A DNA stretch of 64,000 nucleotides from Heterodontus francisci (lineage: Eukaryota), in the NCBI RefSeq assembly GCF_036365525.1, contig NC_090403.1:31567461-31631460 (forward strand). The letters are read 5' to 3'. Below are positions 1,638 through 48,034 of the stretch, one piece after another. The notes under the pieces were generated by a model. That model did not search any database, was not told the DNA's origin, and saw nothing but the letters and a program-made list of their open reading frames with translations. Position 1 is the stretch's first letter. Every line of letters starts with the position of its first letter. The position numbers were made by a program, and so were the translations under genes.

Positions 1638-3663
1638 GTGAGTACTGAAATTCCTATGTTACTTTGTAAAGTCCTTTGGGATAGACGACATCTTTCCAAA
1701 CATGTTTTCAAAGGTGGTGCAGTGTAATTAGATCACTTGCCTTTTCCCTTCTCGAACCAGAGTTAAATTTCACCCCAGTTGGATAAACGTCTCCTCTTTC
1801 AGATCGCCACAAGACACCTGAGTAAAAATGAGTTTGAGTCATCTCACTCCAGTTCCTAATGGGATCCACGTAAGTAATCTTAACAGATTCTCCTGGCATT
1901 TGAACAATGGAGCATTCCAAACTTCCTGCTCAATTCAGTAACTTGGCAATAAAGAGGCTGCAATGCTGCCAAGAGCAAACTGGAATGGACTCCAAACAAC
2001 ATCCCTTGGTTGGTCATCTCCTGTGCTGAAGAGAACCCAGTGCAGTGAAATCAATGGCCCATTTCTCCACTTTGGATGGGTTAGGGTCATATGAAGTTCC
2101 TTCAGAAAACAGCAGGGCCCAAAGACTATGCATAAGGGGTTTACAGCAGGCACCAGACCTACAGAACAGTAAATTTGATGCAATCTGCTCCTGGTACAGA
2201 TTTGAAGAACAAATGCCAATATTTTTGGTGCAAAATAATTCAGTTACTGCAGCATCTGCCAACCCCATATGCCCATTCACATTGAATATTCTGCACAGCC
2301 TCACAACCTACACTGCTAAAGCTGACCATTAATCCAGGGAACAATTGGATTGATCACTTGACTCAGAACCCTATATAAAGGGAAGCATCTTTGGAGACTG
2401 TTTTAGGGCCCAGTGATAGGCAATGATCTTAACTCTATATCCGACCCATAGTATGCCTAACTTGGAAGTGCTTCATGTCAACTAATGCAAATAATGAAAA
2501 TGCTTTCTATTCCCCAGTCACTAACATTTTTAATCTTGATGGGCACAAGAATTCACAACTAAAAGGCTTTAAAATAATACAAGGTATGGATAATGCTGAA
2601 GTAAGCAAACTATTAAACTTGAACAATGATCATAGAACTAGAGGACACCAGCACACCATTCAAAACCTTTGAGCAAGATTAAGATTAGAAAACTTGTTTT
2701 ACCACAGACTCCCAAAGCATGTAGTTGAATTCACAAAGATTGGTATCTTTTGAAGGCATTTGCAGTATTATCTGTTGAGAAGTGGATTTGCAGGTCATAA
2801 AGAGGTTAATATTACTATATTTTTTCAGGAAGTAGTAGAAGGAACTTAGTGGTATAAATGTTATATTGTTGCATTCATTTTAAAGGCTTAAAAGGGTTAA
2901 TCGATCTGGCAGGGCAGGGGCCTGCACCCAGTCTACCCGGGCCTTTAGGCCACTGGTAAATTAGTCAGGGCCTTGTCAACCTCCTGAAATGAGACTCGTG
3001 CACACATTTCAGACCCTGACTAGTAAATCAGTTCACCCTAGTTGGATCTTGTGATAAACTAGTTCTTATTGTCAGTTCCAGGCCTTGAGCTGCCAAACAT
3101 GCGGTCCTTTAAGGGACCACTGGAGGCCACTCAAAAAACACCCCCTAAATGTTAGCGTTTTATGGAGTCAGCAGGAACAGGAGTGTTCCTTCTAGCTTCA
3201 CATACAATTGAGTTGCTGCTGGTTCACCCCTTCCTCACCTCTTTCCGCTCTTAGACATACCTCCGGACCCTGGTGAGTGGTGAAATTGGTAAGGTCCCTA
3301 CAGGCAAGCTACTTTGGGGTGCCTGATTTATTTTGTGAGGCCCGAGGATGAATTTACTTTAGTCCTTGGTGCTCTCTATTCCAGTGCATTGCTGGCATTG
3401 CGCCTGGTTTGTGGCTCTAAGTTATTCAGGCCCCTTAGTGTTCCATACAGTAGGGGATCCTGTGGTGGTGGTGAAGGGACAAGGGCTGGGGGGGATGTGA
3501 TGGTATCTCCATGACAGGAGAATCAGCCATGGACTCTGGATGGAGTGGGATTGATGAGTAAAATGGTCTTTTTTTTTGTTCTGAACTGGTTTCTAAAATG
3601 ATTACACCACAATAATAGAACTAAATCCATGTTCCTTCTTAATGTTTTCCTTTTTTTTTCTAG

Positions 3664-4647: not shown

Positions 4648-4820
4648 TATTTTAGTTTAGTTTAGAGATACAGCACTGAAACAGGCCCTTCGGCCCACCG
4701 AGTCTGTGCCGACCATCAACCACCCATTTATACTAATCCTACACTAATCCCATATTCCGACCACATGCCCACCTGTCCCTATATTTCCCTACCGCCTACC
4801 TATACTAGGGGCAATTTATA
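4648..4820 (-). mobile_element. 3' part of HE1-like V-SINE / CR1 tail
   Basis: Closely similar to 60000-60140 (agagatacagcactgaaacaggcccttcggcccacc). Confidence 0.8.
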
Positions 4821-14232: not shown

Positions 14233-14789
14233 ACTGCAGGGCTAAAGATATCATGAATATGGCATCATTCAATAAACACAGCTGCCAACAGCTGGCTACA
14301 TTGTTTCAAAGCAATGCTCAGATTCTCACTGAGAAATTCTGGGCAGCCTACATTAGAATGTAACAAGTTAGGACATAGTTTGACTTTGTTGCATTGCATT
14401 TAAAATATATATAGACACATAAAATTGTGTTATTAGTCTCCACCCATGTGACAAGGCTTCTCATGGATGTCTCCACTGATCCATCTATGTGAAATCCCGA
14501 GCTTCATTCTTAACATGGCATTTTCATTTGTTAAATCCTCCTCAGTAGAGTGAATGGAGTGTTCTGGGCCCCCTTTAATAATTCTTTGCAATATACTACA
14601 GGTTTCAGGTTGGTTGGCGTCCTTGCATCTATGAATGGTGATGGACACACAGCAAATAATCCATTTAGGTGGGGTGTCTTCTCTTGGTGCACCTTTGCTG
14701 ATTGCTCTGAAGGCCAATCCTTGAGTGGCAGGTTCTGTCGCAAGCTGCCAAGTGATGCTGTGAATTGTTGCTTTTGACGTTGGCACCTT

Positions 14790-15205
14790 TTGCCAAACTG
14801 CTGTAGCAACTGGTCGTCATGGTAGTGTACACCAGTCCACAGGATGTGTCGCCATTTCCTTCTTTTGCCAGCTTAGATGCGATAGTCGACATTTAGAGCC
14901 TTCATGTCACACATGCAAGCATCCTTGAAGCGGAGCTTTGGGCACCCCACTGGTTGTCTGGCCCCAGCTACCTCACCGTACAGAAGGTGCTTGGGTATGC
15001 GACCGTCTTCCATCCTGCGGACGTGTCCGATCCACCGAAGCCGCCTCTGTTTGATTAGTGCAAACTTAGGAGTTCTGCCTTTGAGAGGACTGCCACATTT
15101 GTGATTTTGTTCTGACAGGATATACCCATAATGCACCGTAGACAGCGAAGATGGAAATTATTGAGCTTCTTTTCCTAGTAGCTGTAAGTCGCCCATGTTT
15201 CACAG
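14790..15205 (-). mobile_element. RTE-clade LINE, ORF C-terminal fragment
   Basis: ORF 14873-15136: QRRLRWIGHVRRMEDGRIPKHLLYGE...G.PKLRFKD, a typical RTE C-terminus. Confidence 0.85.
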
Positions 15206-16729
15206 TGCAATAAACAATTTGCTGAAGCACTTCTGTTTTCTTACCATCAGTTGATTTAGAGCTTTATTCCTTACTGATTAACCCTTCCTTATAATTGAAT
15301 AATCCGATTGATCCGAGTTGTGTCTCACTGTCATCCTGCACAGTCCCAAGCATGGGACACAACTTGAAACATGAAACACAACTTGATCTTTCCTGTTCTA
15401 ACCTCCCAAGCTTATCTGGTCAACTGTACTTTGTGTAATGTTGCATGTGGGAGCTGCTGCCCCTGTGCACACCTCCAACAGATTCTGATCAAATGCAGCA
15501 AAGTATTTGTTACTGAGCAGCATTGTCTATGCTACCTGTTCAGGTTAGCAATACAGTCAACCTACAATGTAGAAGGGAAGAAAGAACTTGCATTTTACAC
15601 AGTGCCTTTCATGACTGCAGCTTGTCCCAAAGTGCTATCTAGCCAATGAAGTACATTTTGAAGTGTAGTCACTGTTGACACTTTGACAATGTGGCACCCA
15701 TTAATGATCATTAACTGTTACCTGATGTGAGGCCCACTCCATGCGCTAAGGGGTGAATTCTTCCTTCAATTTGTGATTTGCTCAGGTCTTACAATTGCAC
15801 TCGGTCTCCTGACTTCACCCGAGAATCTATCCTGGACTAACATTCACTCCTTCTGTCTCCCACTTCTTACAAGTGGAATGCCTAATGGATCTGGAATCAG
15901 CCTATGTCAACTTGCTGCATTGAAAATATCCCCAATTTTGAGTGTTACAGCCAGCCACGCTGTTCCAAAATAGTGGTGTAGAGTTAAATCCTTTCCAGTT
16001 ACTTCTTTAAGTAAAAATTGGAATTGTGTGCTCGTTGTTTCTATCACTCTCTTTGCCATCCCTTGGCAATGAGCTGTGGTGCAAATATGGGAGCTTTATT
16101 TCATATGTGTTAATGTGCTAATGGAACTGGACATCATCTGTCACCAATAAAGTGCTACGGATCTTGGTAATGTTTCTAGATCGTTAAGAAGTTGAAAAGT
16201 CTGCTACTCTGCTCTGGTACAAGCAATAGAACATAGGAGCCTGGGAACAGAAGTAGGCCCTTCAGCCCCTATGGATGGAGGAGACCTATTGAAACATGTC
16301 TACTAGTAAGTGCATTGAATAAATTGCACCAAATCATTCGTTTTCTCCCTACCTTCCTTCAGTTTCTACTGACGGAAACTGTTACAACTTGTGTCCTCAG
16401 GGTGGCAGTCCAAAGCTGTTTTAGTTTAAATTCAAGGGATGTAATGCCAATTATCTCCACTAAGTGTCATCAGCACACAACCTTTACACACAAACTGCAT
16501 CCTTACCCTGCAAAGTTAGTGCGTTTTTATGCAAAGATTATTTAGTACTCTCTATTTTCTTAATTACTGTGCTTTAGATACGATCTCTTCATATCCATAG
16601 CAACCTCTTCCACCTCCGCAGAAAAGTACCAAAGATGAACTTTATTTGAAAGGATATGATTATTAAGTAAGTGTACTTGTATAACTTGTACTTCATGTTC
16701 TCTTTTATAATAATCTGACTCAATCAATT

Positions 16730-20185: not shown

Positions 20186-21492
20186 GGGGAGGCAGTGGCC
20201 TAGTGGTATTATCACTGGACTAGTAACCCAGAGACCCGGGTATTGATTTGGGGACATGGGTTCGAATCCCACCACAGCAGAAGGTGGAATTTGAATTTAA
20301 TTAATGATGGCGATGAAACCATTATCGATTGTTGTAAAAACGCATCTGGTTCACTAATGTCCTTTAGGGAAAGAAATCTGCTGTCCTTACCTGGTCTGGC
20401 CGACATGTGACTCTCGACCCACAGCAATGTGGTTAACTCTTACATGCCCTCTGAAATGGCCGAGCAAGCCACTCAGTTGTACCAAACCGCTACGAAGTCA
20501 ATAAAAAGGAATGAAACCGAACGGACCACTCGGCATCAACCTAGGCACCGGAAGCGACAACGGCAAACCCAGCCCTGTCGACCCTGCAAAGTCCTCCTTA
20601 CTAACATCTGGGGGCTTGTGCCAAAGTTGGGAGAGCTGTCCCACAGACTAGTCAAGCAACAGCCTGACATAGTCATACTCACAGAATCATACCTGACAGA
20701 CAACGTCCCAGACACTGCAATCACCATCCCCGGGTATGTCCTGTCCCACCGGCAGGACAGACCCAGCAGAGGTGGTGGCACAATGGTATACAGTAGGGAG
20801 GGAGTTGCCCTGGGAGTCCTCAACATCAACTCCAGACCCCATGAAGTCTCATGGCATCAGGTCAAACATGGGCAAGGTAACCTTCTACTGATTACCACCT
20901 ACCGCCCTCCCTCAGCTGATGACTCAGTACTCCTCCATGTTGAACACCACTTGGAGGAAGCAGTGAGGGTGGAATGGGCACAATATGTACTCTGGGTTTG
21001 GGACTTCAATGTCCATCACCAAGAGTGGCTCGGTAGCACCACTACTGATCGAGCTGGCCGAGTCCCAAAGGACATAGCTGCTAGACTGGGTCTGCGGCAG
21101 GTGGTGGGGGAACCAACACGAGGGAAAAACATACTTGACCTCGTCCTCACCAATCTGCCTGCCACAGATGCATCTGTCCATGACAGTATTGGTAGGAGTG
21201 ACCACCGCACAGTCCTTGTGGAGACGAAGTCCCACCTTCACATTAAGGATACCCTCCATCGTGTTGTGTGGCACTATCACCGTGCTAAATGGGATAGATT
21301 TCGAACAGATCTAGCAATGCAAAACTGGGCATCCATGAGGTGCTGTGGGCCATCAGCAGCAGCAGAATTGTACTCAACCACAATCTGTAACCTCATGGCC
21401 CGGCATATCCCCCACTCTACCATTACCATCAAGCCAGGAGACCAACCCTGGTTCAATGAAGGGTGCAGGAGGGCATGCCAGGAACAGCACTA
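20186..21492 (+). mobile_element. 5' part of the tRNA-headed LINE (Pol III-type head + APE endonuclease)
   Basis: A box TGGCCTAGTGG 20197-20207, B box GGTTCGAATCC 20259-20269; highly similar to 43951-45275. Confidence 0.9.
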
Positions 21493-21493
21493 G
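20444..21493 (+). CDS. LINE APE endonuclease domain, truncated ORF
   Basis: TNIWGL, DIVILTES, GGG, YRPP, DFN, LDLVLTN, SDH motifs of non-LTR apurinic-like endonucleases. Confidence 0.9.
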   Translation: MPSEMAEQATQLYQTATKSIKRNETERTTRHQPRHRKRQRQTQPCRPCKVLLTNIWGLVPKLGELSHRLVKQQPDIVILTESYLTDNVPDTAITIPGYVLSHRQDRPSRGGGTMVYSREGVALGVLNINSRPHEVSWHQVKHGQGNLLLITTYRPPSADDSVLLHVEHHLEEAVRVEWAQYVLWVWDFNVHHQEWLGSTTTDRAGRVPKDIAARLGLRQVVGEPTRGKNILDLVLTNLPATDASVHDSIGRSDHRTVLVETKSHLHIKDTLHRVVWHYHRAKWDRFRTDLAMQNWASMRCCGPSAAAELYSTTICNLMARHIPHSTITIKPGDQPWFNEGCRRACQEQH

Positions 21494-21498
21494 GTCCT

Positions 21499-21645
21499 CA
21501 TGTGACCCACAGCAATGTGGTTGACTCTTAACTGCCCTCTGAAATGGCCTAGCTAGCCATTCAGTTGTCAAGGGCAATCAGGGATGGGCAACAAATGCTG
21601 GCCTTACCAGCGACGCCCACATCCGATGAAAGAATAAATTTAAAA
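21499..21645 (+). mobile_element. 3' half of a non-autonomous SINE made of LINE 5' region + LINE 3' tail
   Basis: 21504-21568 matches 44210-44274; 21569-21635 matches 47331-47396. Confidence 0.85.
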
Positions 21646-22605
21646 TAATAGAGAAAAGGCACCAGATAGATCCAGGAATGAGCACCACTTTGAACAGGCT
21701 CAGTAGCACGATTCATTTAAACATGTCAGAAGGTTCCCTCCATTAAGCCCTGTCATAAAAGAGATAATCTGTCCACTGTCAGCAAGACTCTCAAATGTTG
21801 GTCAGAAAATTTCTTTGGAGAAAAATATTCCTTGATTCTCCCCTCCTGTCATGGAGAAGATGACTAATGCTGTCACAGACTGCAAATGATTGTGGTATCT
21901 AATCCAAATGATCGTGCTTCATGAATCAAATCAAACAATGATTCATAGACATTTCAATCATTGTAGGGTGCGGGAGGGGAGGTAATTATACTCCAGTCTG
22001 ATCCTTGTCTTCACCCAATTTTTACAGGCATCCACTTCCAATGGGTTCATGAGATTGCAATTCAAGACCAGAATCCTGGCTGACTTTTTCATCCTTAGCA
22101 CAGAGACTTTGTGGTTAATTGTAGCACCCATCAGGGAGATATCCACCCTCTCAAACTCCTGCACATGCATGGTAAGGTTGACAATCATATATACTGACTC
22201 TGGGGACAATACTAGTCTGTTTTGGGATATATTTCAATACATTAATTTTACTACTTTTAAAGACATTACATTGATTATTTTTAAATGCCTGTAAATAGGA
22301 GAATGATATATTCCAGAGCATTACCAGAAACAAATAATAGGTATACATTCCACAGAGTCTATAAATCAAAGTCCCAAAATAACAACCAAGTGGGAATCTC
22401 AATATAACATCAAAGTGTAGCGGAAAGAGATCCACTGAATGCTTGACTATATTACAATAAAAAGGTCTGTTTCTATCTACATTAAGATAAGTAGATAGAA
22501 CGATACATTATGAAGAATTCTTGTGTACAACCTAAATTGTATATAGGCATAGCAGAAATGGTCAGTTTATTTGTAGACAATCTCCATCTTGTAATGTCGC
22601 TGTAC

Positions 22606-27364: not shown

Positions 27365-28424
27365 AAGTTTTTTTTTGTATTTGTTCATGGGATGTGGGCA
27401 TCGCTGGCTAGGCCAGCATTTATTGCCCATTCCCTAATTGCCCTTGAGAAGGTGGTGGTGAGCTGCCTTCTTGAACCGCTGCAGTCCATGTGGGGTACAT
27501 ACACCCAGACTGCTGTTAGGAAGGGAGTTCCAGGAATTTGACCCAGCGACAGTGAAGGAACGGTGATATAGTTCCAAGTAAGGATGGTGTGTGGCTTGGA
27601 GGGGAACTTGCAGGTGGTGGTGCTCCCATGAATCTGCTGCCCTTGTCCGTCTAGGTGGTAGAGGTCGTGGATTTGGAAGGTGCTGTCTAAGGAGCCTTGG
27701 TGCATTGCTGCAGTGCATCTTGTAGATGGTATCCACTGCTGCCACTGTGCATCGGTGGTGGAGGGAATGAATGTTGAAGGTTGTGCATAGGGTGACAATC
27801 AAGCGGGCTGTTTTGTCCTGGATGGTGTCGAACTTCTTGAGTGTTGTTGGAGCTGCACCCATCCAGGTAAGTGGAGAGTAATCCACCACACTCCTGACTT
27901 GTGCTTTGTAGTTGGTGAACAGGCTTTGGGGAGTCAGGAGGTGAGTTATTCGCCACAGGATTTCTAGCCTCTGACCTGTTCTTGTAGCCACAGTATTTAT
28001 ATGGCTACTCCAGTTCAGTTTCTGGTCAATGGTAACCCCCAGGATATTGATAGTGGGGGATTCAGCGATCATAATGCCATTGAATGTCAAAGGGAGATGG
28101 TTAGATTCTGTCTTGTTTGAGATAGTCATTGCCTGACACTTGTGTGGCGTGAATGTTACTTGCCACTTATCAGCCCAAGCCTGGATGTTGTACAGGTCTT
28201 GCTGCATTTTTACATGGACTGATTCAGTATCTGAGGAGTCGCGAATTCTGCTGAACATTGTGCAATCATCAGCGAACATCCCCACTTCTGACCTTATGAT
28301 GGAGGAAGGTCATTGCAGAAGCAGCTGAAGATGAATGGGCCTAGGACACTATCCTGAGGAACTCCTGCAGTGATGTCCTGACGCTGAGATAATTGACCTC
28401 CAACAACCACAACCATCTTCCTTG
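27365..28424 (-). mobile_element. 5'-truncated copy of the tRNA-headed LINE family (RT C-half + tail)
   Basis: ORF 27434-28285 (FADD...AHHHLLKGN) matches the C-half of 45856-47343. Confidence 0.95.
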
Positions 28425-32085: not shown

Positions 32086-33935
32086 TTAAATAAAAACAAA
32101 ATACTGCGGATGCTGGAAATATGAAATAAAAACAAGAAATGCTGGAAATACTCAGCAGGTCTGGCAGCATCTGTGGAGAGAGAAGCAGAGTTAACATTTC
32201 AGGTCAGTGACCCTTCTTCAGAACTGGCAAATATTAGAAATGTAAAAGGTTATAAGCAAGTGAGGTTGGGGTGGGGCAAGAGATAACAAAGGAGAAGGTG
32301 TAGATAGGACAAGGTCACAGAATAGCTGACCAGAAGGTCGTGGAGCAAAGGCAAACAATATGTTAATGGTGTGTTGAAAGACAAAGCATTAGTACAGAAA
32401 GGGCGTTAACAGACTGAAAATTGAACAGCCGCAAGTACAAATATGAAAAAAAAGTGGGTAAGCAAACTGAGCAAACTAAGATGAAATAAAATAAAATAAA
32501 CACAAAAAATATATAAAAAAAGGAAAAAGAAAAAATAACTAAAAATAAAAGTATAATGGGGGGCCCGTCATGCTCTGAAATTATTGAACTCAATGTTCAG
32601 TCCGGCAGGCTGTAGTGTGCCTAATCGGTAAATGAGATGCTGTTCCTCGAGCTTGCGTTGATGTTCACTGGAACACTACAGCAATCCCAGGACAGAGATG
32701 TGAGCATGAGAGCAGGGGGGAGTGTTGAAATGGCAAGCAACCGGAAGCTCAGGTTCATGCTTGCGGACTGAGCGGAGGTGTTCCGCAAAGTGGTCACCCA
32801 GTCTGCATTTGGTCTTCCCAATGTAGAGGAGACCACATTGTGAGCAGCGAATACAGTATACTACATTGAAAGAAGTACAAGTAAATCGCTGCTTCACCTG
32901 AAAGGAGTGTTTGGGGCCTGGGATAGTGAGGAGAGAGGAGGTAAATGGGCAGGTATTACACCTCCTGTGATTGCAGGGGAAGGTGCCATGGGAAGGGGAC
33001 GAGGTGGTGGGGGTAATGGAGGAGTGGACCAGGGTGTCACGGAGGGAACGATCCTTTCAGAATGCTGACAGGGGAAGGGAGAGGATGATGCGTTTGGTAG
33101 TGGCATCATGCTGGAGGTGGCGGAAATGGCGGAGGATGATCCTTTGGATATGGAGGCTGATGGAAAGTGAGGATAAGGGGAACCCTGTCACGGCTCTGGG
33201 AGGGAGGGGAAGGGGTGAAGCTCAAGGTGAGGGAAGCGGGCCGGACACGGTTGGGGGCCCTGTCAACAACAGTAGGGGGGAATCCTCGGTTGAGGAAAAA
33301 GGAAGACAGATCAGAGGCGCTGTCATGGAAGGTAGCATCATCAGAGCAGATGCGTCAGAGATGGAGAAACTGGGAGAATGTAATGGAGTCCTTACAAGAG
33401 GCAGGGTGTGAAGAAGTGTGGTCGAGGTAGCTGTGGGAGTCGGTGGGCTTATAATGGATATTAGTAGACAGTCTATCCCCAGGGATGGAGATAGAGAAGT
33501 CGAGAAAGGGAAGGGAAATGTCGGAGATGGACCATGTAAAGGTGAGAGAAGGGTGGAAATTAGAAACAAAGTTGAGAAAGTTTTCCAGTTCAGGGCAGGA
33601 GCAGGAAACGGCACCGATACAGTCATCAATGTACCAGAAAAAGAGTTGGGGGGGCCCTGAGTAGGACTGGATCAAGGAATGTTCGACATATCCCACAAAA
33701 AGACAGGCATAACTAGGACCCATGCGGGTACCCTTAGCAACACCTTTTACTTGAAGGAAGTGAGTGGAGTTGAAGGAGAAGTTGTTCAATGTGAGAACAA
33801 GTTCAGCCAGGCAGAGGAGGGCGGTGGTGGATGGGGACTGGTTGGGCCTCTGTTCAAGGAAGAAGCAGAGAGCCCTCAAACCATCCTGGTGGGGGATGGA
33901 GGTGTAGAGAGATTGGACGTCCATAGTGAAGAGGA
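32086..33935 (-). mobile_element. Penelope-like retroelement, 5'-truncated (RT + GIY-YIG endonuclease + terminal repeat)
   Basis: 33355-33924: DVQSLYTSIP, NNFSFN, GVAKGTRMGPSYA, YIDD; 32676-32897: NVVYCIRCSQCGLLYIG.T..RL..F.EH. Confidence 0.92.
32190..32228 (-). ncRNA. Minimal hammerhead ribozyme core in Penelope terminal repeat
   Basis: Minus strand reads CTGAAGA-agGGTCA-c-TGACC-t-GAAA, i.e. CUGANGA / short stem II / GAAA. Confidence 0.6.
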
Positions 33936-34024
33936 ACCTCTTTTAAATGCTGACTATAATCCTGATAAGATTGCTTTTTAGCAGATTATAGGGTTATTTG
34001 ATGCATAGTATTATTATATACTTA

Positions 34025-36073: not shown

Positions 36074-37800
36074 ATGGCCAAGGCAAGACACAGAGTGGCT
36101 CCACGGTTCAGTGATGCCTCCCTCCAGATTCTCCTCCAGGCTGCAAGGCAAAGGCGGGAGGTTCCCTTGTCCCATGATGGCAAGAAGAGGTCCTCCCACC
36201 TGACCAAGACTGGGTGGAGATCACAGAGGAAGTCAGCACCTGTGGGGTCACCCAACATAACTGTGTCCAGTGCAGGAAAAGGGTCAATGACCACCTGCCT
36301 TCTGCCAAGGTGAGTGCTCCATACCAATCGCCATTTTAAGAATTGCATGTGACTTCACTGGAGGGTGCGGGACATGGGGAGAGAAGCACTGCTGTGGCGA
36401 TGGCTGAGGGGCTAGTGTTTCATCTCATCCTGACAGATGCATGGCTGCATCTCAGCAACAGGCCACCTTCCTTCATAGCTCACCCCCTTAACTCCCTTGA
36501 CATCGAGTGTCAGCATGAGAGATATCAGATCCCCCAGTAGGGGACGAGGGGCTCACATGAGCAAAACTGTCATGGTGATTTGTCTGCCATTCTCTACTAT
36601 CTCCATCCTTCTTCTTGCAGGACAAGAGGGCCCACAACAGAAGGGAGATGACCTGGACTGGTGGCAGATTCCCAGATCTGCGCTCACTCACCTGCGCTGA
36701 AGAAGAGGCATTGGAGTTGGCGGGCCCGCAGGGCGGCCACGCAATATCGGGGAGATTGGAGTCCCTGCACAAGAGAGTGAGCATTGGCTCCCGTTGCCAT
36801 GCACATTAATGTTGGAGACCCACATCACGCATGGTTGGCATCAGGAGATCTGCACAGCCTGACCCACAAATGTTTCTGTTCTCTCATGCAGGTAGCCGTG
36901 CACAGGGGTCCACAAATACGGGGGGTCAGTCGTCCACCCCTAGTGGAAGAGGACAACTCAGAGGATGCACCAACCCATGACTCTCTTGCACCCTCCACCA
37001 GCGCAGATACTTTCACCTTGCTGGGTAACTGCTCAGCATTGGAATCAGGGTCACAAGCTGGTGAGCGCAACGCACATGCGCCCGTGCAGCTGGCTGAGGC
37101 TGAGACAGCCAAGGTCTCCGACAGGCAGAGGCCTGTCGTTGGCCAGGCTATGATGAGCCCCAGGCTCATGGCGAGCCTCTGGTGTCAACAGCACAGGCCA
37201 TGAAGCAGTTTCAGAGAGGGGTAAAGCAACATCTGGCAGAGCTGCCAGAGGCAATGTGCAGCCATGAGCAGACGAAGGAGGAGTCCATCCATGCCATGAG
37301 TATGGCCATGTCTCAGGCATATGTACACATGACTTCCTCCATTGAGAGCTTAGCAACCCTCATAGACAGCCAGATTCCACAGTTGCGAGCAGATCTGCAC
37401 ATCATCGTCTTGGCCATGAGCTCAGCATAGCAACGGCAAGGCGAGAGAAGGAACAGGAGCCCAAAGGCTTCTGCAGCCCCTGGTCCTTCTCTGGTGAGTA
37501 GGGAGGCTTAAGAGAGCCTTCAAAGGGAGGAGGAGAGGTTGCCATCCACATCTGGGGCTCCCCTCAGGGCGCTCCATGTGTGGACACTGGCTCCTCAACG
37601 CCTCCGCCAGTGAGCCCAGCTCCAGCAGCCAGGATGCCTCAGGACCAGGGCAGGAAACCCTCAGACGGCTGCCAAAGTCATCACAGGACAAGAGGCAGAC
37701 TGATAAGCAGACTGCCTCCAGCCCAGCTGCTGTTGCAGGGATCAGACTGCATAGAAGCACCCACAAATGGGTGCCACACTTTGGGTCTCACGGGTGTACC
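36074..37800 (+). pseudogene. Harbinger Myb/SANT-like gene, spliced, frameshifted
   Basis: RVAPRFSDASLQILLQAARQRREV..., QCRKRVND; donor AAG|gtgagt at 36309, acceptor to DKRAHNRRE at 36621. Confidence 0.8.
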
Positions 37801-38099
37801 CAACATGTAACTAATTAAAATTTCCTTTCTTCAAACCATTAGGCTTTATTGTTTGAAAGCCATGTGCCATTATGCCTTAATGCGGGCTGCTGACTTCCCT
37901 CTTCCCCCTCCAAGCAATGTCAATGTGACCACAGCTCTCATTAACATGCCAATGTGCTGACAGCCCTCGTTAACATATTGTCTCCCATGGTCATTAGCAC
38001 ACAGTGCAGCCTGTTGCAAGAGAGGGAATACAAATGGAAAGGAGGCAACAGAGTTCAGGCATTAGGGTAAGCCTTTATTTGACTCTGTGAATGGACATC

Positions 38100-40060
38100 A
38101 GGGTGGCTGGAAATGAGGTATTATGAGGTTGTCTCTTGCTTCCTGCGCAAGTCACTCAACCCGTCTAGCCTCCTGCACAGGGTCTTCATCATGCATTGCT
38201 GCTTGTCCCTCTCCCTGCTCTGTGTCCTCCTTGTTGGTGGATGAGTGTCACTCAGGCATATCATCCTCATGTATGGCCTCCCCCCTTTGCAGCGCTAGAT
38301 TGTGTGGAGCACAGCAGATTTACACAATACGCAATACCCTCACCGGGCCATATTGCAGGGATCCACCTGAACGCTCGAGGCAGAGGAATCTGATCTTCAG
38401 CAGCCCAATGGCCTGCTCGATGGTCACTTGGGTGGAGCCATGGCAATCATTGCACCTCTCCTCCGCTGCATTGCAAGGGTTCCTCATAGGTGTCAGAAGC
38501 CATGTTTTCAATAAGTACCCCTTGTCCCTGAGAATCCATCCCTGAAGGTGAGGAGGGAGCCATCAAAAGCTGTGGCACCTGGGAGTGCTGAAGTATGTAG
38601 GAGTTGTGACTTCCCATGTAGCGGGCACCCAACTGCAGGAAATATGGTTGTACACTAGTTGAACGTTGATTGAATGGAAACCCTTCCTGTTGATGAAGGC
38701 GGCTTGCTGCTCCATAGGAACCTTGATGGCCACATGAGTATTATCTATCACACCTTGCACTTGAGGGAATCCAGCAATGGCCCCAAAGCCGATAGCCTTC
38801 TTGGCCTGACTGTCAGGGTCGATCCAGTAGCAGACATCACCGGCCCTCTTGAGCAGGATGTTGGTCACCTCCTTGATGGAGCAGTGGGTTGCTGCCTGGG
38901 AGAGCCCACACATGTGAATCCCTGGAAAGATCCAGATGTGTAGGCGTTTAATGCAATGGTGATTTTCAGGGCCACTGGCATAGGATGACCCCAAAATCCC
39001 ATAGGTTGCAACTCAACCTGCAGCAGGGCGCATAAGACGATGACACCCTCCCTGGAGAGCCATAGGCTTCGCTGACAGTGGTGCTCGGACATTTGAGCCT
39101 GAATGTTACAGCCCCCAAATGAGGGGGCTGGCGGCGGGGGAGGGGGGGGGGTGGGGAGAGCGTAAAATTAAGTTGTAAGTGGGAGGGCTATTCCCGATCC
39201 CCTCTCGCCCTTGCTGCAATTTTACACAGAGCGATGGTGGCGGCAATGGCCCACTCGCCCCAGGCCAATCAAGGCCCTTAAGTGGCTAATTAACTGGCGC
39301 TTAAGGGCCTCCTCCCGCCGCTGCGGGTTCTTTACCCTTTGTGGCCGGACGGCAAAAGCCTCAAGAACACTGCCTGGTAAAACAAGATGGCCTTCTTGCG
39401 AGCTGGGGAGGGGCCCTCCTGATCGGGCACCATGCGCCACACGGAGGGCTGCCCCTAAAGCTCCAACTGCCCCCAACGCACAACAATCCCCCCGCCCCCC
39501 TAACTGATCCCCCTTGCCTCATCGGAGCCCGACCGATTGTCCCCGGTGAGGCTCTAAAAACTTATCTGTCGTCCGGGGCCATTCTTCACCTTGCTTGTGA
39601 TGGCTGGGTGTAGTCCCAGCAATGACCACCGCTCCTGATGGTGCTGCTGGTACTAAGAGCTGCCAGCCCGCTAATTGGCCGGCAGCTCCATTAGGCAGGA
39701 CTTCATGCCTCAAGGAGGTGGAAGTCCCACCAAAGACCAATTAAAGGCCTGGGGAACGAAAAACCCCAGCCTGGCTCCCCTGCCTGGCGGAGGCGGGCTC
39801 GCCACTGACTTTTCAGCCGGTGGGCAGGACCTCCCGTGGAACAAAAAATTCCAGCCTTGGAGTTAGCTGATCCAAGTCCGGCACACTCTTTAGTGCAGGT
39901 GGGCCCTCTTGGCAAGGCTGGCTGCCAGTGCTCTCATCGTGGAACTTCACAGACAGGCACAGCTGCCTCTTAGCCCACTCTCTATCGGAGGCGCCGCATC
40001 ACGCCATGCGGGCCCAGCAATATAGGGTGTATGAGACCCATGCCAGGTGACCTGTGGGCT
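38100..40060 (-). pseudogene. Harbinger (HARBI1-like) DDE transposase, interrupted by a MITE
   Basis: LKITIALNAYTSGSFQ, GFPQVQGVIDNTHVAI, FINRKGFHSINVQLV, TWLLTP, IEQAIGLLKIRF.CL. Confidence 0.92.
39096..39856. mobile_element. Harbinger-type MITE nested in the transposase
   Basis: TTG duplicated at 39093-39095 and 39857-39859; imperfect TIRs agcctgaatgt / aaattccagcc. Confidence 0.88.
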
Positions 40061-43355: not shown

Positions 43356-43950
43356 TTAACTCTACTGCTGCTATGACATCATGTATGTCACCAGTACAAG
43401 TCCAAAGAAAAAGGTAGCAATGCTTTTATTGCTGGTGAGCAAGAACAAGTGAAATAGCCATCCTCATGAAGAAATAACATAAATGATAGACTGATACTAC
43501 CTTAATGCAATACAAATTGTTTCATCAATCGTGATTTTGGCAAAAATAGATACAAGGGCGGACAATGCTTTTTTTTCAAAAATTGTGTTTCTTCAAGGAA
43601 TATTGTGGCTTTTCAGTATAATGTAAGAATTAGAACAAGACAGCAGATTGAGAAATAATTAATGCAGTGAGTTAAGAAATTTGCTATTATGCCACATATT
43701 CCTTTTTTCAGTTCGATATTGTAGCATTCAGTATTGGGAATGAGCAGCCAAAGGTGCAAAGAATATTTTGCACTTAGAAATAGTATTCAACAGACTTTAG
43801 TTACTCAAGTGTCCAAGGGCCTCATTATTTGACTCCCTATATTTGGTTAATTCCAAACCCCCCTCCCCTCACCCCCATGTGCAATTAAAAAGGTTTTGGT
43901 GATGGAGTTTGATTTTTGCTATTATTGTTGGGTCGGGATGGTCTCGTTGA

Positions 43951-44045
43951 GGGGTAGGTGTTGGCCTAGTGGTATTATCACTGGACTAGTAACCCAAACT
44001 GCCAGGGTATTTCTCTGGGGACATGGGTTCGAATCCCACCACAGC
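43951..44045 (+). promoter_or_regulatory. tRNA-like type 2 RNA polymerase III internal promoter
   Basis: TGGCCTAGTGG and GGTTCGAATCC match A/B box consensus; anticodon-like arm ctggactagtaaccca between them. Confidence 0.75.
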
Positions 44046-45855
44046 AGAAGGTGGAATTTGAAGTTAATTAATAAATTTGGAATTAAAAGCTAGTCTAATG
44101 ATGGCCATGAAACCATTGTCGATTGTTATAAAAACCCATCTGGATCACTAATGTCCTTTAGGGAAGGAAATCTGCTGTCCTTACCTGGTCTGGCTGATAT
44201 GTGACTCCAGACCCACAGCAATGTGGTTAACTCTTACATGCCCTCTGAAATGGCCGAGCAAGCCACTCAGTTGTACCAAACCGCTACGAAGTCAATAAAA
44301 AGGAATGAAACCAGACGGACCACTCGGCATCAACCTAGGCACCGGAAACGACAACGGCAAACCCAGCCCTGTCGACCCTGCAAAGTCCTCCTTACTAACA
44401 TCTGGGGGCTTGTGCAAAAGTTGGGCGAGCTGTCCCACAGACTAGTCAAGCAACAGCCTGACATAGTCATACTCACGGAATCATACCTTACAGACAATGT
44501 CCCAGACACTGCCATCACCATCCCTGGGTATGTCCTGTCCCACCGGCAGGACAGACCCACCAGAGGTGGTGGCACAGTGGTATACAGTAGGGAAGGCGTT
44601 GCCCTGGGAGTCCTCAACATCGACTCTGGACCCCATGAAGTCTCATGGCATCAGGTCAAACATGGGCAAGGTAACCTCCTACTGATTACCACCTACTGCC
44701 CTCCCTCAGCTGATGACTCAGTACTCCTCCATGTTGAACACCACTTGGAGGAAGCAGTGAGGTGGCAAGGGCACAAAATGTACTCTGGGTGGGGGACTTC
44801 AATGTCCATCACCAAGAGTGGCTCGGTAGCACCACTACTGAGCGAGCTGGCCGAGTCCTAAAGGACACAGCTGCTAGACTGGGTCTGCGGCAGGTGGTTG
44901 GGGAACCAACACGAGGGAAAAACATACTTGACCTCGTCCTCACCAATCTGCCTGCCGCAGATGCTTCTGTCCATGACAGTATTGGTAGGAGTGACCAAGG
45001 AGAGTCCTTGTGGAGACAAAGTCCCGCCTTCACATTGAGGATACCGTCCACCGTGTTGTGTGGCACTATCACCGTGCTAAATGGGATAGATTTCGAACAG
45101 ATCTAGCAATGCAAAACTGGGCATCCATGAGGCGCTGTGGGCCATCAGCAGCAGCAGAATTGTACTCAACCACAATCTGTAACCTGCATATCCCCCACTC
45201 TACCATTACCATCAAGCCAGGAGACCAACCCTGGTTCAATGAAGAGTGCAGGAGGGCATGCCATGAGCAGCACCAGGCATACCTCAAAATGAGGTGTCAA
45301 CCTGGTGAAGCTACAACCCAGGACTACTTGCATGCCAAACTGCGCAAGTAGCATGCGATAGACAGAGCTAAGCGATCCCATAACCAACGGATAAGATCTA
45401 AGCTCTGCAGTCCTGCCACATCCAGCCGTGAATGGTGGTGGACAATTAAACAACTAACTGGAGGAGGTGGCTCCACAAATATCCCCATCCTCAATGACGG
45501 GGGAGCCCAACACATCTGTGCGAAAGATAAGGCTGAAGCATTTGCAACAATCTTCAGCCAGGAGTGCCGAGTTGGTGCTGAACATTGTGCAATCATCAGC
45601 GAACATCCCCACTTCTGACCTTATGATTGATGGAAGGTCATTGATGAAGCAGCTGAAGATGGTTGGGCCTAGGACACTACCCTAAGGAACTCCTGCAGTG
45701 ATGTCCTGGAGCTCAGATGATTGACCTCCAACAACCATGATCCATCTCGGCCTCCTCCGGAAGTCCCCAGCATTACAGATGCCAGACTTCAGCCAATTCT
45801 ATTCACTCCGCGTGATATCAAGAAATGACTGAAGGCACTGGAAACTGCAAAAGCT

Positions 45856-47343
45856 ATGGGCCCTGACAATATTATGGCAATAGTACTGAAGACCTGTGCT
45901 CCAGAACTTGCCGCGCCCCTAACCAAGCTGTTCCAGTACTGCTACAACACTGGCATCTACCCTGCAATGTGGAAAATTGCCCAGGTATGTCCTGTACACA
46001 AAAAGCAGGACAAGTCCGAACCGGCCAATTACCGCCCCATCAGCCTACTCTCAATCATCAGTAAAGTGATGGAAGGTGTCATCAACAGTGCCATCAAGCA
46101 GCACTTTCTTAGCAATAACCTGCTCAGTGATGCTCAGTTTGGGTTCCGCCAGGGCCACTCAGCCCCTGACCTCATTACAACCTTGGTTCAAACATGGACA
46201 AAAGAGCTGAACTCAAGAGGTGAGGTGAGAGTGACTGTCCTTGACATCAAGGCAGCATTTGACCGAGTATGGCATCAAGGAGTCCTAGCAAAACTGAGGT
46301 CAATGGGAATCAAGGGGAAAACCCTCCACTGGCTGGAGTCATACCTAGCGCAAAGGAAGATGGTTGTGGTTGCTGGAGGTCAATCATCTGAGCTCCAGGA
46401 CATCACTGCAGGAGTTCCTCAGGGTAGTGTCCTGGGCCCAACCATCTTCAGCTGCTTCATCAATGACCTTCCTTCAATCATAAGGTCAGAAGTGGGGATG
46501 TTCGCTGATGATTGCACAATGTTCAGCACCATTCGTGACTCCTCAGATACTGAAGCAGTCCGTGTAGAAATGCAGCAAGACCTGGACAATATCCAGGCTT
46601 GGGCTGATAAGTGGCAAGTAACATTCGCGCCACACAAGTGCCAGGCAATGACCATCTCCAGCAAGAGAGAATCTAACCATCTCCCCTTGACATTCAATGG
46701 CATTACCATCGCTGAATCCCCCACTATCAACATCCTAGGGGCTGCCATTGACCAGAAACTGAACTGGAGTAGCCAAATAAATACCGTGGCTACAAGAGCA
46801 AGTCAGAGGCTAGGAGTCCTGAGGCGAGTAACTCACCTCCTGACTCCCCAAAGCATGTCCACCACCTACAAGGCACAAGTCAGGAGTGTGATGGAATACT
46901 CTTCACTTGCCTGGATGGGGATGGGTGCAGCTCCAATAACACTCAAGAAGCTCGACACCATCCAGGACAAAGCAGCCCGCTTGATTGGCACCCCATCTAC
47001 AAACATTCACTCCCTCCACCACCGACGCACAGTGGCAGCAGTGTGTACCATCTACAGGATGCACTGCAGCAATGCACCAAGGCTCCTTGGACAGCACCTT
47101 CCAAACCCGCGACCTCTACCAACTAGAAGGACAAGGGCAGCAAATACATGGGAACACCACCACCTGCAAGTTCCCCTCCAAGTCACACACCATCCTGACT
47201 TGGAACTATATCGCTGTTCCTTCACTGTCGCTGGGTCAAAATCCTGGAACTCCCTTCCTAACAGCACTGTGGGTGTATCTACCCCACATGGATTGCAGCA
47301 GTTCAAGAAGGCAGCTCACCACCACCTTCTCAAGGGCAATTAG
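45856..47343 (+). CDS. Non-LTR reverse transcriptase domain and C-terminus
   Basis: GPD, YRPISLLS, QFGFR, LDIKAAFDRV, GVPQGSVLGP, FADD, ILG motifs. Confidence 0.95.
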   Translation: MGPDNIMAIVLKTCAPELAAPLTKLFQYCYNTGIYPAMWKIAQVCPVHKKQDKSEPANYRPISLLSIISKVMEGVINSAIKQHFLSNNLLSDAQFGFRQGHSAPDLITTLVQTWTKELNSRGEVRVTVLDIKAAFDRVWHQGVLAKLRSMGIKGKTLHWLESYLAQRKMVVVAGGQSSELQDITAGVPQGSVLGPTIFSCFINDLPSIIRSEVGMFADDCTMFSTIRDSSDTEAVRVEMQQDLDNIQAWADKWQVTFAPHKCQAMTISSKRESNHLPLTFNGITIAESPTINILGAAIDQKLNWSSQINTVATRASQRLGVLRRVTHLLTPQSMSTTYKAQVRSVMEYSSLAWMGMGAAPITLKKLDTIQDKAARLIGTPSTNIHSLHHRRTVAAVCTIYRMHCSNAPRLLGQHLPNPRPLPTRRTRAANTWEHHHLQVPLQVTHHPDLELYRCSFTVAGSKSWNSLPNSTVGVSTPHGLQQFKKAAHHHLLKGN

Positions 47344-48034
47344 GGATGGGCAATAAATGCTGGCCTGGCCAGTGACGCCTACATCCCATGAATGAATTTT
47401 AAAAAAACTTTTCTTTCTTTTGTTGTGCTTAGCGCAAATATGTTTGGCTTTTATTCTGGAGTTAGATTGATGAGTGCATGTTTTTGTGGAGTGTGAGGTG
47501 CAGCTATAGTTGCTTCAGCATCACAGTGGAGTAACATTACCAGAGTTATTCTGAAGTAAGCATCTGCAATTGGAACAAAAATGTTGCCTTACCCTTTCCA
47601 TAGACAGGAATGGTGTGCTTGCTCCCATGCCATTTCATGTATTGATTTGGGCTATGGTCTGTATCTGAGGCAATATTGCACTTAGCCTGTCCATAGCAAT
47701 ACCATTCTGATGTCTTTTTCACTACCTATAGCCTAGGCTTTCTGGATCATACAGGAACATCGAAAGGAACATAGCAACAGGAGTAAGCCATTTATCCCCT
47801 TGAGCCCATTTTACCATTCAATTAGATCGTGACTGGTCTGTATCCATCTTTTATAAGACCATTTTGGGTTAGCCACGGAGCAGGGCTACTGCCTACCCAT
47901 GTGATTCTGCCATTAATGTGCTGCACTTTTCTCCCAGCACCCTCATTAGCTATGTGGATAGGTTGGAAATATTAGGTATCCTCCATACACTTGAGCACAT
48001 CCAAAACTCTGCTGCCCATATTCTATCTTGCACC

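Follow-up and report, generated by a model that had tools for sequence, protein, structure and literature searches.

The window analysed here, 64,000 nucleotides (nt) of the Heterodontus francisci contig NC_090403.1, contains a copy of a long interspersed element (LINE) that begins with a tRNA-like head carrying both boxes of an internal promoter for RNA polymerase III (Pol III). This copy's family avoids runs of T along its coding strand and, in most copies, has no usable AUG ahead of its endonuclease. Judged from its sequence, the family is the elasmobranch Zenon LINE of the CR1 group, already catalogued by Stuart et al. 2026 (PMC13343379). The main text of that paper, where tRNA, polymerase and promoter have 0 matches, makes no remark on the head, on the avoidance of T-runs or on the blocked AUG. 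We regard it as well supported that this is a known family with an unremarked oddity, and we somewhat favour a reading in which Pol III would start at position +1 from the internal boxes and the 3.3-kb RNA would be both message and template. The features of the window copy are:

43952..47407, + strand: whole element, a decayed full-length Zenon LINE copy (about 3.3 kb in the family, here plus a private insert)
43951..44274, + strand: head plus body in common with a short interspersed element (SINE) of about 400 nt (29 SINE loci compared)
43962..43972, + strand: A box, TGGCCTAGTGG, of an internal Pol III promoter of tRNA type (type 2)
44007..44011, + strand: TATTT between the boxes
44026..44036, + strand: B box, GGTTCGAATCC
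44238..44258, + strand: two in-frame AUGs and then a GAG codon (TAG in most copies, which makes a 6-codon upstream open reading frame, ORF, in the family)
44382..45010, + strand: AP-endonuclease (APE) domain, with frameshifts near 44762 and 45000 in this copy
45578..45736, - strand: private insert of about 160 nt, an inverted piece of the family's own reverse transcriptase (RT) region
45829..47343, + strand: open 504-codon part of the frame, with the RT at about 46000-46716 plus the C-terminal region
47327..47407, + strand: 3' tail in common with the SINE, with a predicted stem-loop, AATAAA at 47352, ATGAATGAAT, TTTT at 47397-47400 and a short A tail

The match to Zenon was made by eye over the first 400 nt of each published consensus, plus length. 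All seven elasmobranch Zenon consensuses, from five species (CarCar_Zenon-1, RhiTyp_Zenon-1, ScyCan_Zenon-1, SquAca_Zenon-1/2/3 and HypSab_Zenon-1; PMC13343379), begin with this head by eye and have the same body, junction and APE+RT at about 3.3 kb; over the first 400 nt compared, they show no difference in kind from the window element. By the same inspection, the three hagfish/coelacanth Zenon consensuses are headless and carry runs of four or more T in their first 400 nt. Six B-box 11-mers, tried against the first 400 nt of 1,003 consensuses from that source, were found in only three, all of them shark Zenons. As far as can be judged by eye, the intervening spacer varies across the shark and ray consensuses while both boxes stay recognisable. 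According to the parts of PMC13343379 consulted, elasmobranch Zenon LINEs lack ORF1 and have a poly-A tail, and the family in H. francisci likewise has APE and RT in one frame (seen in the natural copy L299), no ORF1 and short A tails. The nearest unnamed proteins are 35-41% identical to that of the element. The initial annotation had correctly reported that ORF1 is missing, and the roughly 430 nt between the 5' end and the endonuclease hold no other frame of 150 or more codons. Its use of this absence as evidence for Pol III had to be dropped, since lack of ORF1 is an ordinary trait of all Zenon LINEs and therefore says nothing on the polymerase.

The head is a family-wide 5' end. In the 6.0-Gb genome, a 20-mer across the head-to-frame junction has at least 4,661 exact matches, and one from the 3' end at least 53,901. 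The junction is also present in a second copy within the window, as the initial annotation had pointed out when it argued against a chance SINE insertion. To avoid selecting for the head, we searched by the endonuclease alone and examined 30 of 40 matches. With the window copy excluded, 20 of 29 copies begin at the head, and the remaining nine break off at points dispersed from 24 to 416, next to flanks that look unrelated by eye; no other shared 5' end occurs among the 29. Neither a different 5' end nor an ORF1 was found in these endonuclease-selected copies, and the proposal survived on this point. Near-full copies, 26 of the 40 loci fetched whole, measure 3.2-3.3 kb and are 93-96% identical in pairs (mean 94.5%). 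Matches of 6-7 nt that might be target-site duplications flank six of the 26 and are unconvincing. Neither the 26 nor nine further long-frame loci yielded a headed copy whose frame is intact; the longest frame, 956 unbroken codons across both domains, belongs to L299, which is 5'-truncated. The initial claim of one APE+RT reading frame therefore holds for the family, and fails for the window copy with its frameshifts, stops and insert. A codon-position comparison aimed at purifying selection (third-position share 0.40 old, 0.39 young) was swamped by post-insertion decay. Contigs from four sequencing runs cover the element (24 runs are listed, one of them recorded as RNA); these are assembled contigs, in which start, strand and polymerase are unreadable.

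Within the head, 32 of 57 copies carry the family A box, TGGCGTAGTGG, at the same site and most of the others a close variant of it, and the B box is exact in 39, differs by a single base in 12 and is unmatched in six. The A and B boxes of the window copy agree with the box A and B motifs in the consulted part of PMC10886601. ARAGORN with default settings called no tRNA in the head; at a relaxed threshold of 70% it called, for 25 of 26 heads, a tRNA-like fold on the sense strand around positions 1-97, with many chance calls besides. Rfam returned nothing for the head at gathering score. The head is tRNA-like rather than a tRNA gene, and the boxes described in the initial annotation are in place, with a cloverleaf fold only at the relaxed threshold.

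The sense strand is depleted of T-runs. No sense TTTT (T4) occurs from 43913 to 47397, a gap of 3,484 nt that is the longest in the window and confirms the initial annotation, which had placed its beginning at 43951. The same source had reported the other two copies in the window as free of sense T4, and this is true of both. The element contains 9 TTT. In 54 in-frame segments of natural copies (48 kb, non-independent), T4 occurs at 0.04 per kb against 0.55-1.4 under four null models, and TTT at 2.2 per kb against 3.8-6.7. When the L299 frame was shuffled synonymously, 5 TTT stood against 13.3 expected and none of 500 shuffles was as low, which bears out the earlier remark that TTT is rare. 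Runs of A, C and G in this frame are at expectation, and the companion remark that runs of four or more A are common was not upheld (12 observed, 10.0 expected). A T follows TT with a probability of 0.059 in the family, against 0.22-0.31 in the seven headless LINEs used as controls; interrupted T-rich 5-mers number 2 in the family where 12 are expected, and are at or above expectation in the controls. Only eight TTT sites are common to half of the copies, four of them within the first 210 nt. Internal T4 is absent from 21 of 26 near-full copies. In the other five it arose three times at a common TTT adjoining CpG, and we read these cases as decay after insertion. Low phenylalanine was rejected as a marker, because near relatives span 2.1-5.6%, mostly 2-3%. 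Elsewhere in the window, the second-longest T4-free stretch of the + strand (36334-38505; 2,171 nt, 54% GC) lies outside the Zenon family, so such gaps can arise in other sequence.

The controls came from two sources. Those of the same genome have a T fraction of 0.21-0.23 and clade labels taken from reading of their proteins: two young Tx1/L1-type families (L161-L190) with intact frames of about 1,252 and 1,136 codons carry 3.5 and 1.4 T4 per kb, the CR1-type controls 3.4 and 3.2, and an RTE-type control 1.0. The last is an older family (84-87% identity, 6,890 first-look candidates) with a 3' fragment at 14600-15210 on the - strand of the window. A metagenome set comprised 66 loci, 46 of them with frames of 650 or more codons. 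Forty-five of these relatives are headless, without a B-box match upstream, and carry 1.3-11.7 T4 per kb; the 15 relatives with T under 0.25 carry 1.3-5.1. Depletion of T-runs in the family is stronger than in same-genome LINEs of similar T content, and on this comparison too the initial proposal survived.

The beginning of the coding frame is also unusual. The initial annotation had it begin about 290 nt into the element. An AUG is indeed in frame there in the window copy; there, a minority GAG at codon 44256 is all that keeps the AUGs at 44238 and 44250 open into the endonuclease. Across 57 copies this codon is TAG in 41, GAG in six, CAG in two, AAG in one and unmatched in seven, and by eye it is TAG in six of the seven published elasmobranch consensuses. 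Of the 49 copies translated, 40 have no usable AUG ahead of the endonuclease, and the first in-frame Met of L299 is residue 271, past that domain; among relatives, 31 of 33 have an in-frame Met upstream of it. There is also an out-of-frame AUG at 44307, which by eye recurs in six of the seven elasmobranch consensuses; its frame overlaps the beginning of the endonuclease and, in copy 20187-21494, runs for about 46 codons. With a stop after the upstream AUGs in most copies, translation would need an unusual start: non-AUG initiation, read-through, re-initiation or a shift from the AUG at 44307. A blocked AUG suits an uncapped RNA, short of proof.

The head and tail are both held in common with a companion SINE of about 400 nt, in which element positions 1-324 are joined to 3377-3457 (29 loci, 75-92% identical to the element). 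The SINE junction has 2,179 exact matches in the genome, and the joint is present in contigs of four of four runs. The head may have passed between LINE and SINE, with either one as donor. Sampled SINE copies (window 21504-21648, L132-L160) are more diverged than the LINE copies. In the 3' tail, a hairpin is predicted with a z of only -1.15, and AATAAA lies about 45 nt ahead of the A tail. Among 45 tails, 22 are a plain A tail, 11 have a T-run and then A, and 12 are of other types. The TTTT at 47397-47400, which the initial annotation had noted at the 3' end, we rejected as an encoded terminator, since T4 or longer precedes the A-run in only those 11 tails and at varying offsets, and it is likely a post-insertion change of the A tail. 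The 3' end thus differs from that of a T+ SINE, which has a fixed T-terminator between AATAAA and the A tail.

From these observations we infer the following course of polymerase and translation steps. Before the lineages of sharks and rays separated, an ancestral headless Zenon would have gained 320 nt from the 5' end of a tRNA-derived SINE, or the headed form would have spread between them later. TFIIIC would bind the boxes and Pol III start at +1, so that each full-length daughter would carry its own promoter. Selection would have purged TTTT, TTT and interrupted T-runs, because an RNA ended prematurely would lack the 3' tail needed for priming. Pol III would pass through the A tail and halt at the first T-run in the flank. 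Translation of the uncapped RNA would begin in a non-standard way, by non-AUG initiation, by read-through or by re-initiation past the 6-codon upstream ORF. Its protein would bind the 3' stem-loop and insert the RNA by target-primed reverse transcription, and the companion SINE would employ this head and tail too. Retrotransposition of Pol III transcripts without ORF1p is reported from human cells (PMC2666806, consulted in part).

A candidate for a second lineage of Pol III-type LINEs came from a metagenome contig. L247:1205-4260, the 46th of the long-frame metagenome loci, is a single-frame LINE labelled RTE-type from its protein, and was found via a neighbouring fragment on the opposite strand. 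A tRNA-like sequence at 1210-1280 stands about 200 nt ahead of the endonuclease motif, and the 3.06 kb hold no T4 and three TTT (19.5 expected), with a probability of T after TT of 0.033. Its relatives are many, as proteins only (42-99% identity), and no further L247-like DNA loci were found in the viral or prokaryote contigs searched. The strength of this case is reduced by its being one contig with one stop, where the head could be an adjacent SINE. L247 may be of the RTE-1_DAn kind, LINEs in Repbase that, with their relatives, contain tRNA-like sequence matching many SINE2 heads (PMC5786205, which in the part consulted does not take up where that sequence lies, the polymerase or T-runs); RTE-1_DAn belongs to the RTE clade, whereas the element here is of the CR1 group, and the two were compared by description only. 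We put forward as a tentative proposal that Pol III-transcribed autonomous LINEs form a class that may have arisen at least twice, in the Zenon of sharks and rays and in an RTE lineage of another host. In each, a tRNA-derived head would have been acquired and a coding strand of 3 kb cleared of T-runs, and endonuclease and RT would be made from uncapped RNA, with no AUG as the start in sharks.

Several observations weigh against Pol III as the polymerase. The absence of T4 is weak evidence alone, because the copies descend from essentially one master sequence, and synonymous shuffling of the L299 frame gives 0 T4 against 2.2 expected (P about 0.07); the case therefore rests on TTT and the controls. 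Of the points that the initial annotation had raised, the T-run depletion beyond ordinary LINEs and the uniform 5' end stand, the ORF1 argument falls, and T4 taken alone is weak. Older decayed fragments of the family (72-86% identity) carry about 0.9 T4 per kb, summed by hand with some loci overlapping, which is close to the 1.0 of the decayed RTE control, so that this control separates only on TTT. The metagenome relatives come from other hosts with other mutation biases. The TATTT between the boxes, present in 42 of 57 heads, is a moderate Pol III terminator in mammalian assays and ended 42% of transcripts in B2 constructs (PMC8466645, consulted in part); it was not seen by eye at this site in the seven published elasmobranch consensuses. 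SINE-type elements measure 100-700 bp, a limit ascribed to weak Pol III processivity in the part of PMC10886601 consulted. Translation of an uncapped 3.3-kb RNA would be demanded, and folding, which leaves pseudoknots aside, did not support a structured translation element upstream of the endonuclease (z of -1.62 for 438 nt and 0.57 for the last 121 nt).

Three other explanations were considered. The element could be an ordinary RNA polymerase II (Pol II) LINE, its SINE-derived head a passenger 5' untranslated region or a source of Pol II promoter, and its avoidance of T-runs due to something else, for instance cryptic splice or 3'-processing signals in an RNA without introns. The consulted parts of PMC5786205 and PMC10886601 treat LINEs as transcripts of Pol II, and the AATAAA about 45 nt before the A tail, the TATTT in the head and the non-significance of T4 alone would all agree with this. 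Yet other LINEs of the same genome do not avoid T-runs, the boxes stay recognisable by eye across the sharks and the ray as the spacer varies, and L247 repeats the T-run signature. An AATAAA within the first 160 nt of 51 of 57 copies would be awkward for Pol II as well, although this is a weak point. We consider this explanation unlikely, but deserving of some weight.

Pol III could instead make the RNA that is copied, with the protein translated from capped read-through transcripts that Pol II makes of copies situated inside host transcription units; RNA with the head would in that case act like a very long SINE that also carries the gene. This would explain the boxes and the T-run avoidance without cap-independent translation, and with 53,901 exact 3'-junction matches many copies could be co-transcribed. 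Protein supplied in trans would, on the other hand, leave only weak selection on a 2.9-kb frame, yet headed consensuses of 2.9-3.3 kb occur in five species (PMC13343379, in part), and the blocked AUG would hinder capped scanning too; we judge this quite improbable. That Pol III makes the template, under either this account or the one we favour, is on the sequence evidence probable. Very improbable, and already largely refuted, is the idea that copies with the head arose as by-products, through random SINE insertion or isolated template switches onto truncated LINEs, and that the true autonomous element has another 5' end. It could appeal to the SINE with the same 324 nt and to the lack of an intact-frame headed copy among the 26 and the nine further loci. 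One fixed junction at 4,661 places, the same junction in the published consensuses of five other species and the lack of any other 5' end in the 29 endonuclease-selected copies leave it nearly excluded.

Known systems share parts of this arrangement, each likeness being drawn from partly consulted sources. The SINE2 elements, including the bipartite Bov-tA and the T+ SINE B2, have 5' A and B boxes, a LINE-type 3' tail and AATAAA before the A tail as the element does; they are short and non-coding, whereas the element is 3.3 kb long with a 2.9-kb APE+RT frame and without a fixed terminator before its A tail. In Lepidoptera, Zenon has a short partner, Persaeus, made from its 5' and 3' ends like the SINE here (PMC6740152). 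Unlike that SINE, Persaeus is an internally deleted Zenon derivative without tRNA homology or a Pol III promoter, so the tRNA head looks lineage-specific. Among shark SINEs, SacSINE1 (a Deu-SINE; PMC5499810) and HE1 (a V-SINE) also combine a tRNA head with a LINE tail; the partners reported for them are L2-2_CM/CR1-4_DR-like and HER1, and they were likened to the SINE here by description only. No paper proposing a Pol III-transcribed autonomous LINE appeared in the literature searched, which covered few subscription papers and had Repbase and Dfam outside it, so that absence of such a paper is unproven.

The working rule assigns the coding transcripts of LINEs to Pol II and the short non-coding ones of SINEs to Pol III (PMC5786205, PMC10886601, both consulted in part). 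If the reading we favour is true, this rule would be broken by a Pol III-driven coding retrotransposon of 3.3 kb that has more than 50,000 3' ends in a single genome and occurs in five elasmobranch species. Its RNA would be a naturally occurring vertebrate messenger made by Pol III, and the element would put to a natural test the finding that the need for ORF1 depends on the polymerase (PMC2666806, in the part consulted). It would also offer a direct route between LINE and SINE, through either deletion or capture. A simple screen for more cases in repeat libraries would combine a B box close to the 5' end with a low probability of T after TT. Added here are the identification of the family as Zenon, the matched controls, the blocked AUG and the possible second lineage.

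The window copy itself is dead, with two frameshifts, stops and the private inverted insert, which is 94% identical to 46358-46543; other family copies run continuous across the site. Its RT matches Pfam PF00078 (E 1e-39), and its PF03372 match is below the cut-off. Related features in the window are:

20187..21494, + strand: second headed copy, which ends past the endonuclease region
21504..21648, + strand: companion SINE, 3' part, in which the end of the body adjoins the tail (compared with SINE loci)
27369..28423, - strand: third copy, 5'-truncated, with the RT end plus tail and no sense T4

In the second headed copy, PF03372 and PF14529 are both above the cut-off. Outside the window, L307:4203-4801 is an older copy (79% to the window head) that likewise has a tRNA-like head joined to endonuclease, with a younger copy directly downstream. 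An RT fragment at 33358-33942 on the - strand of the window (PF00078, below the cut-off) is unrelated to the Zenon family.

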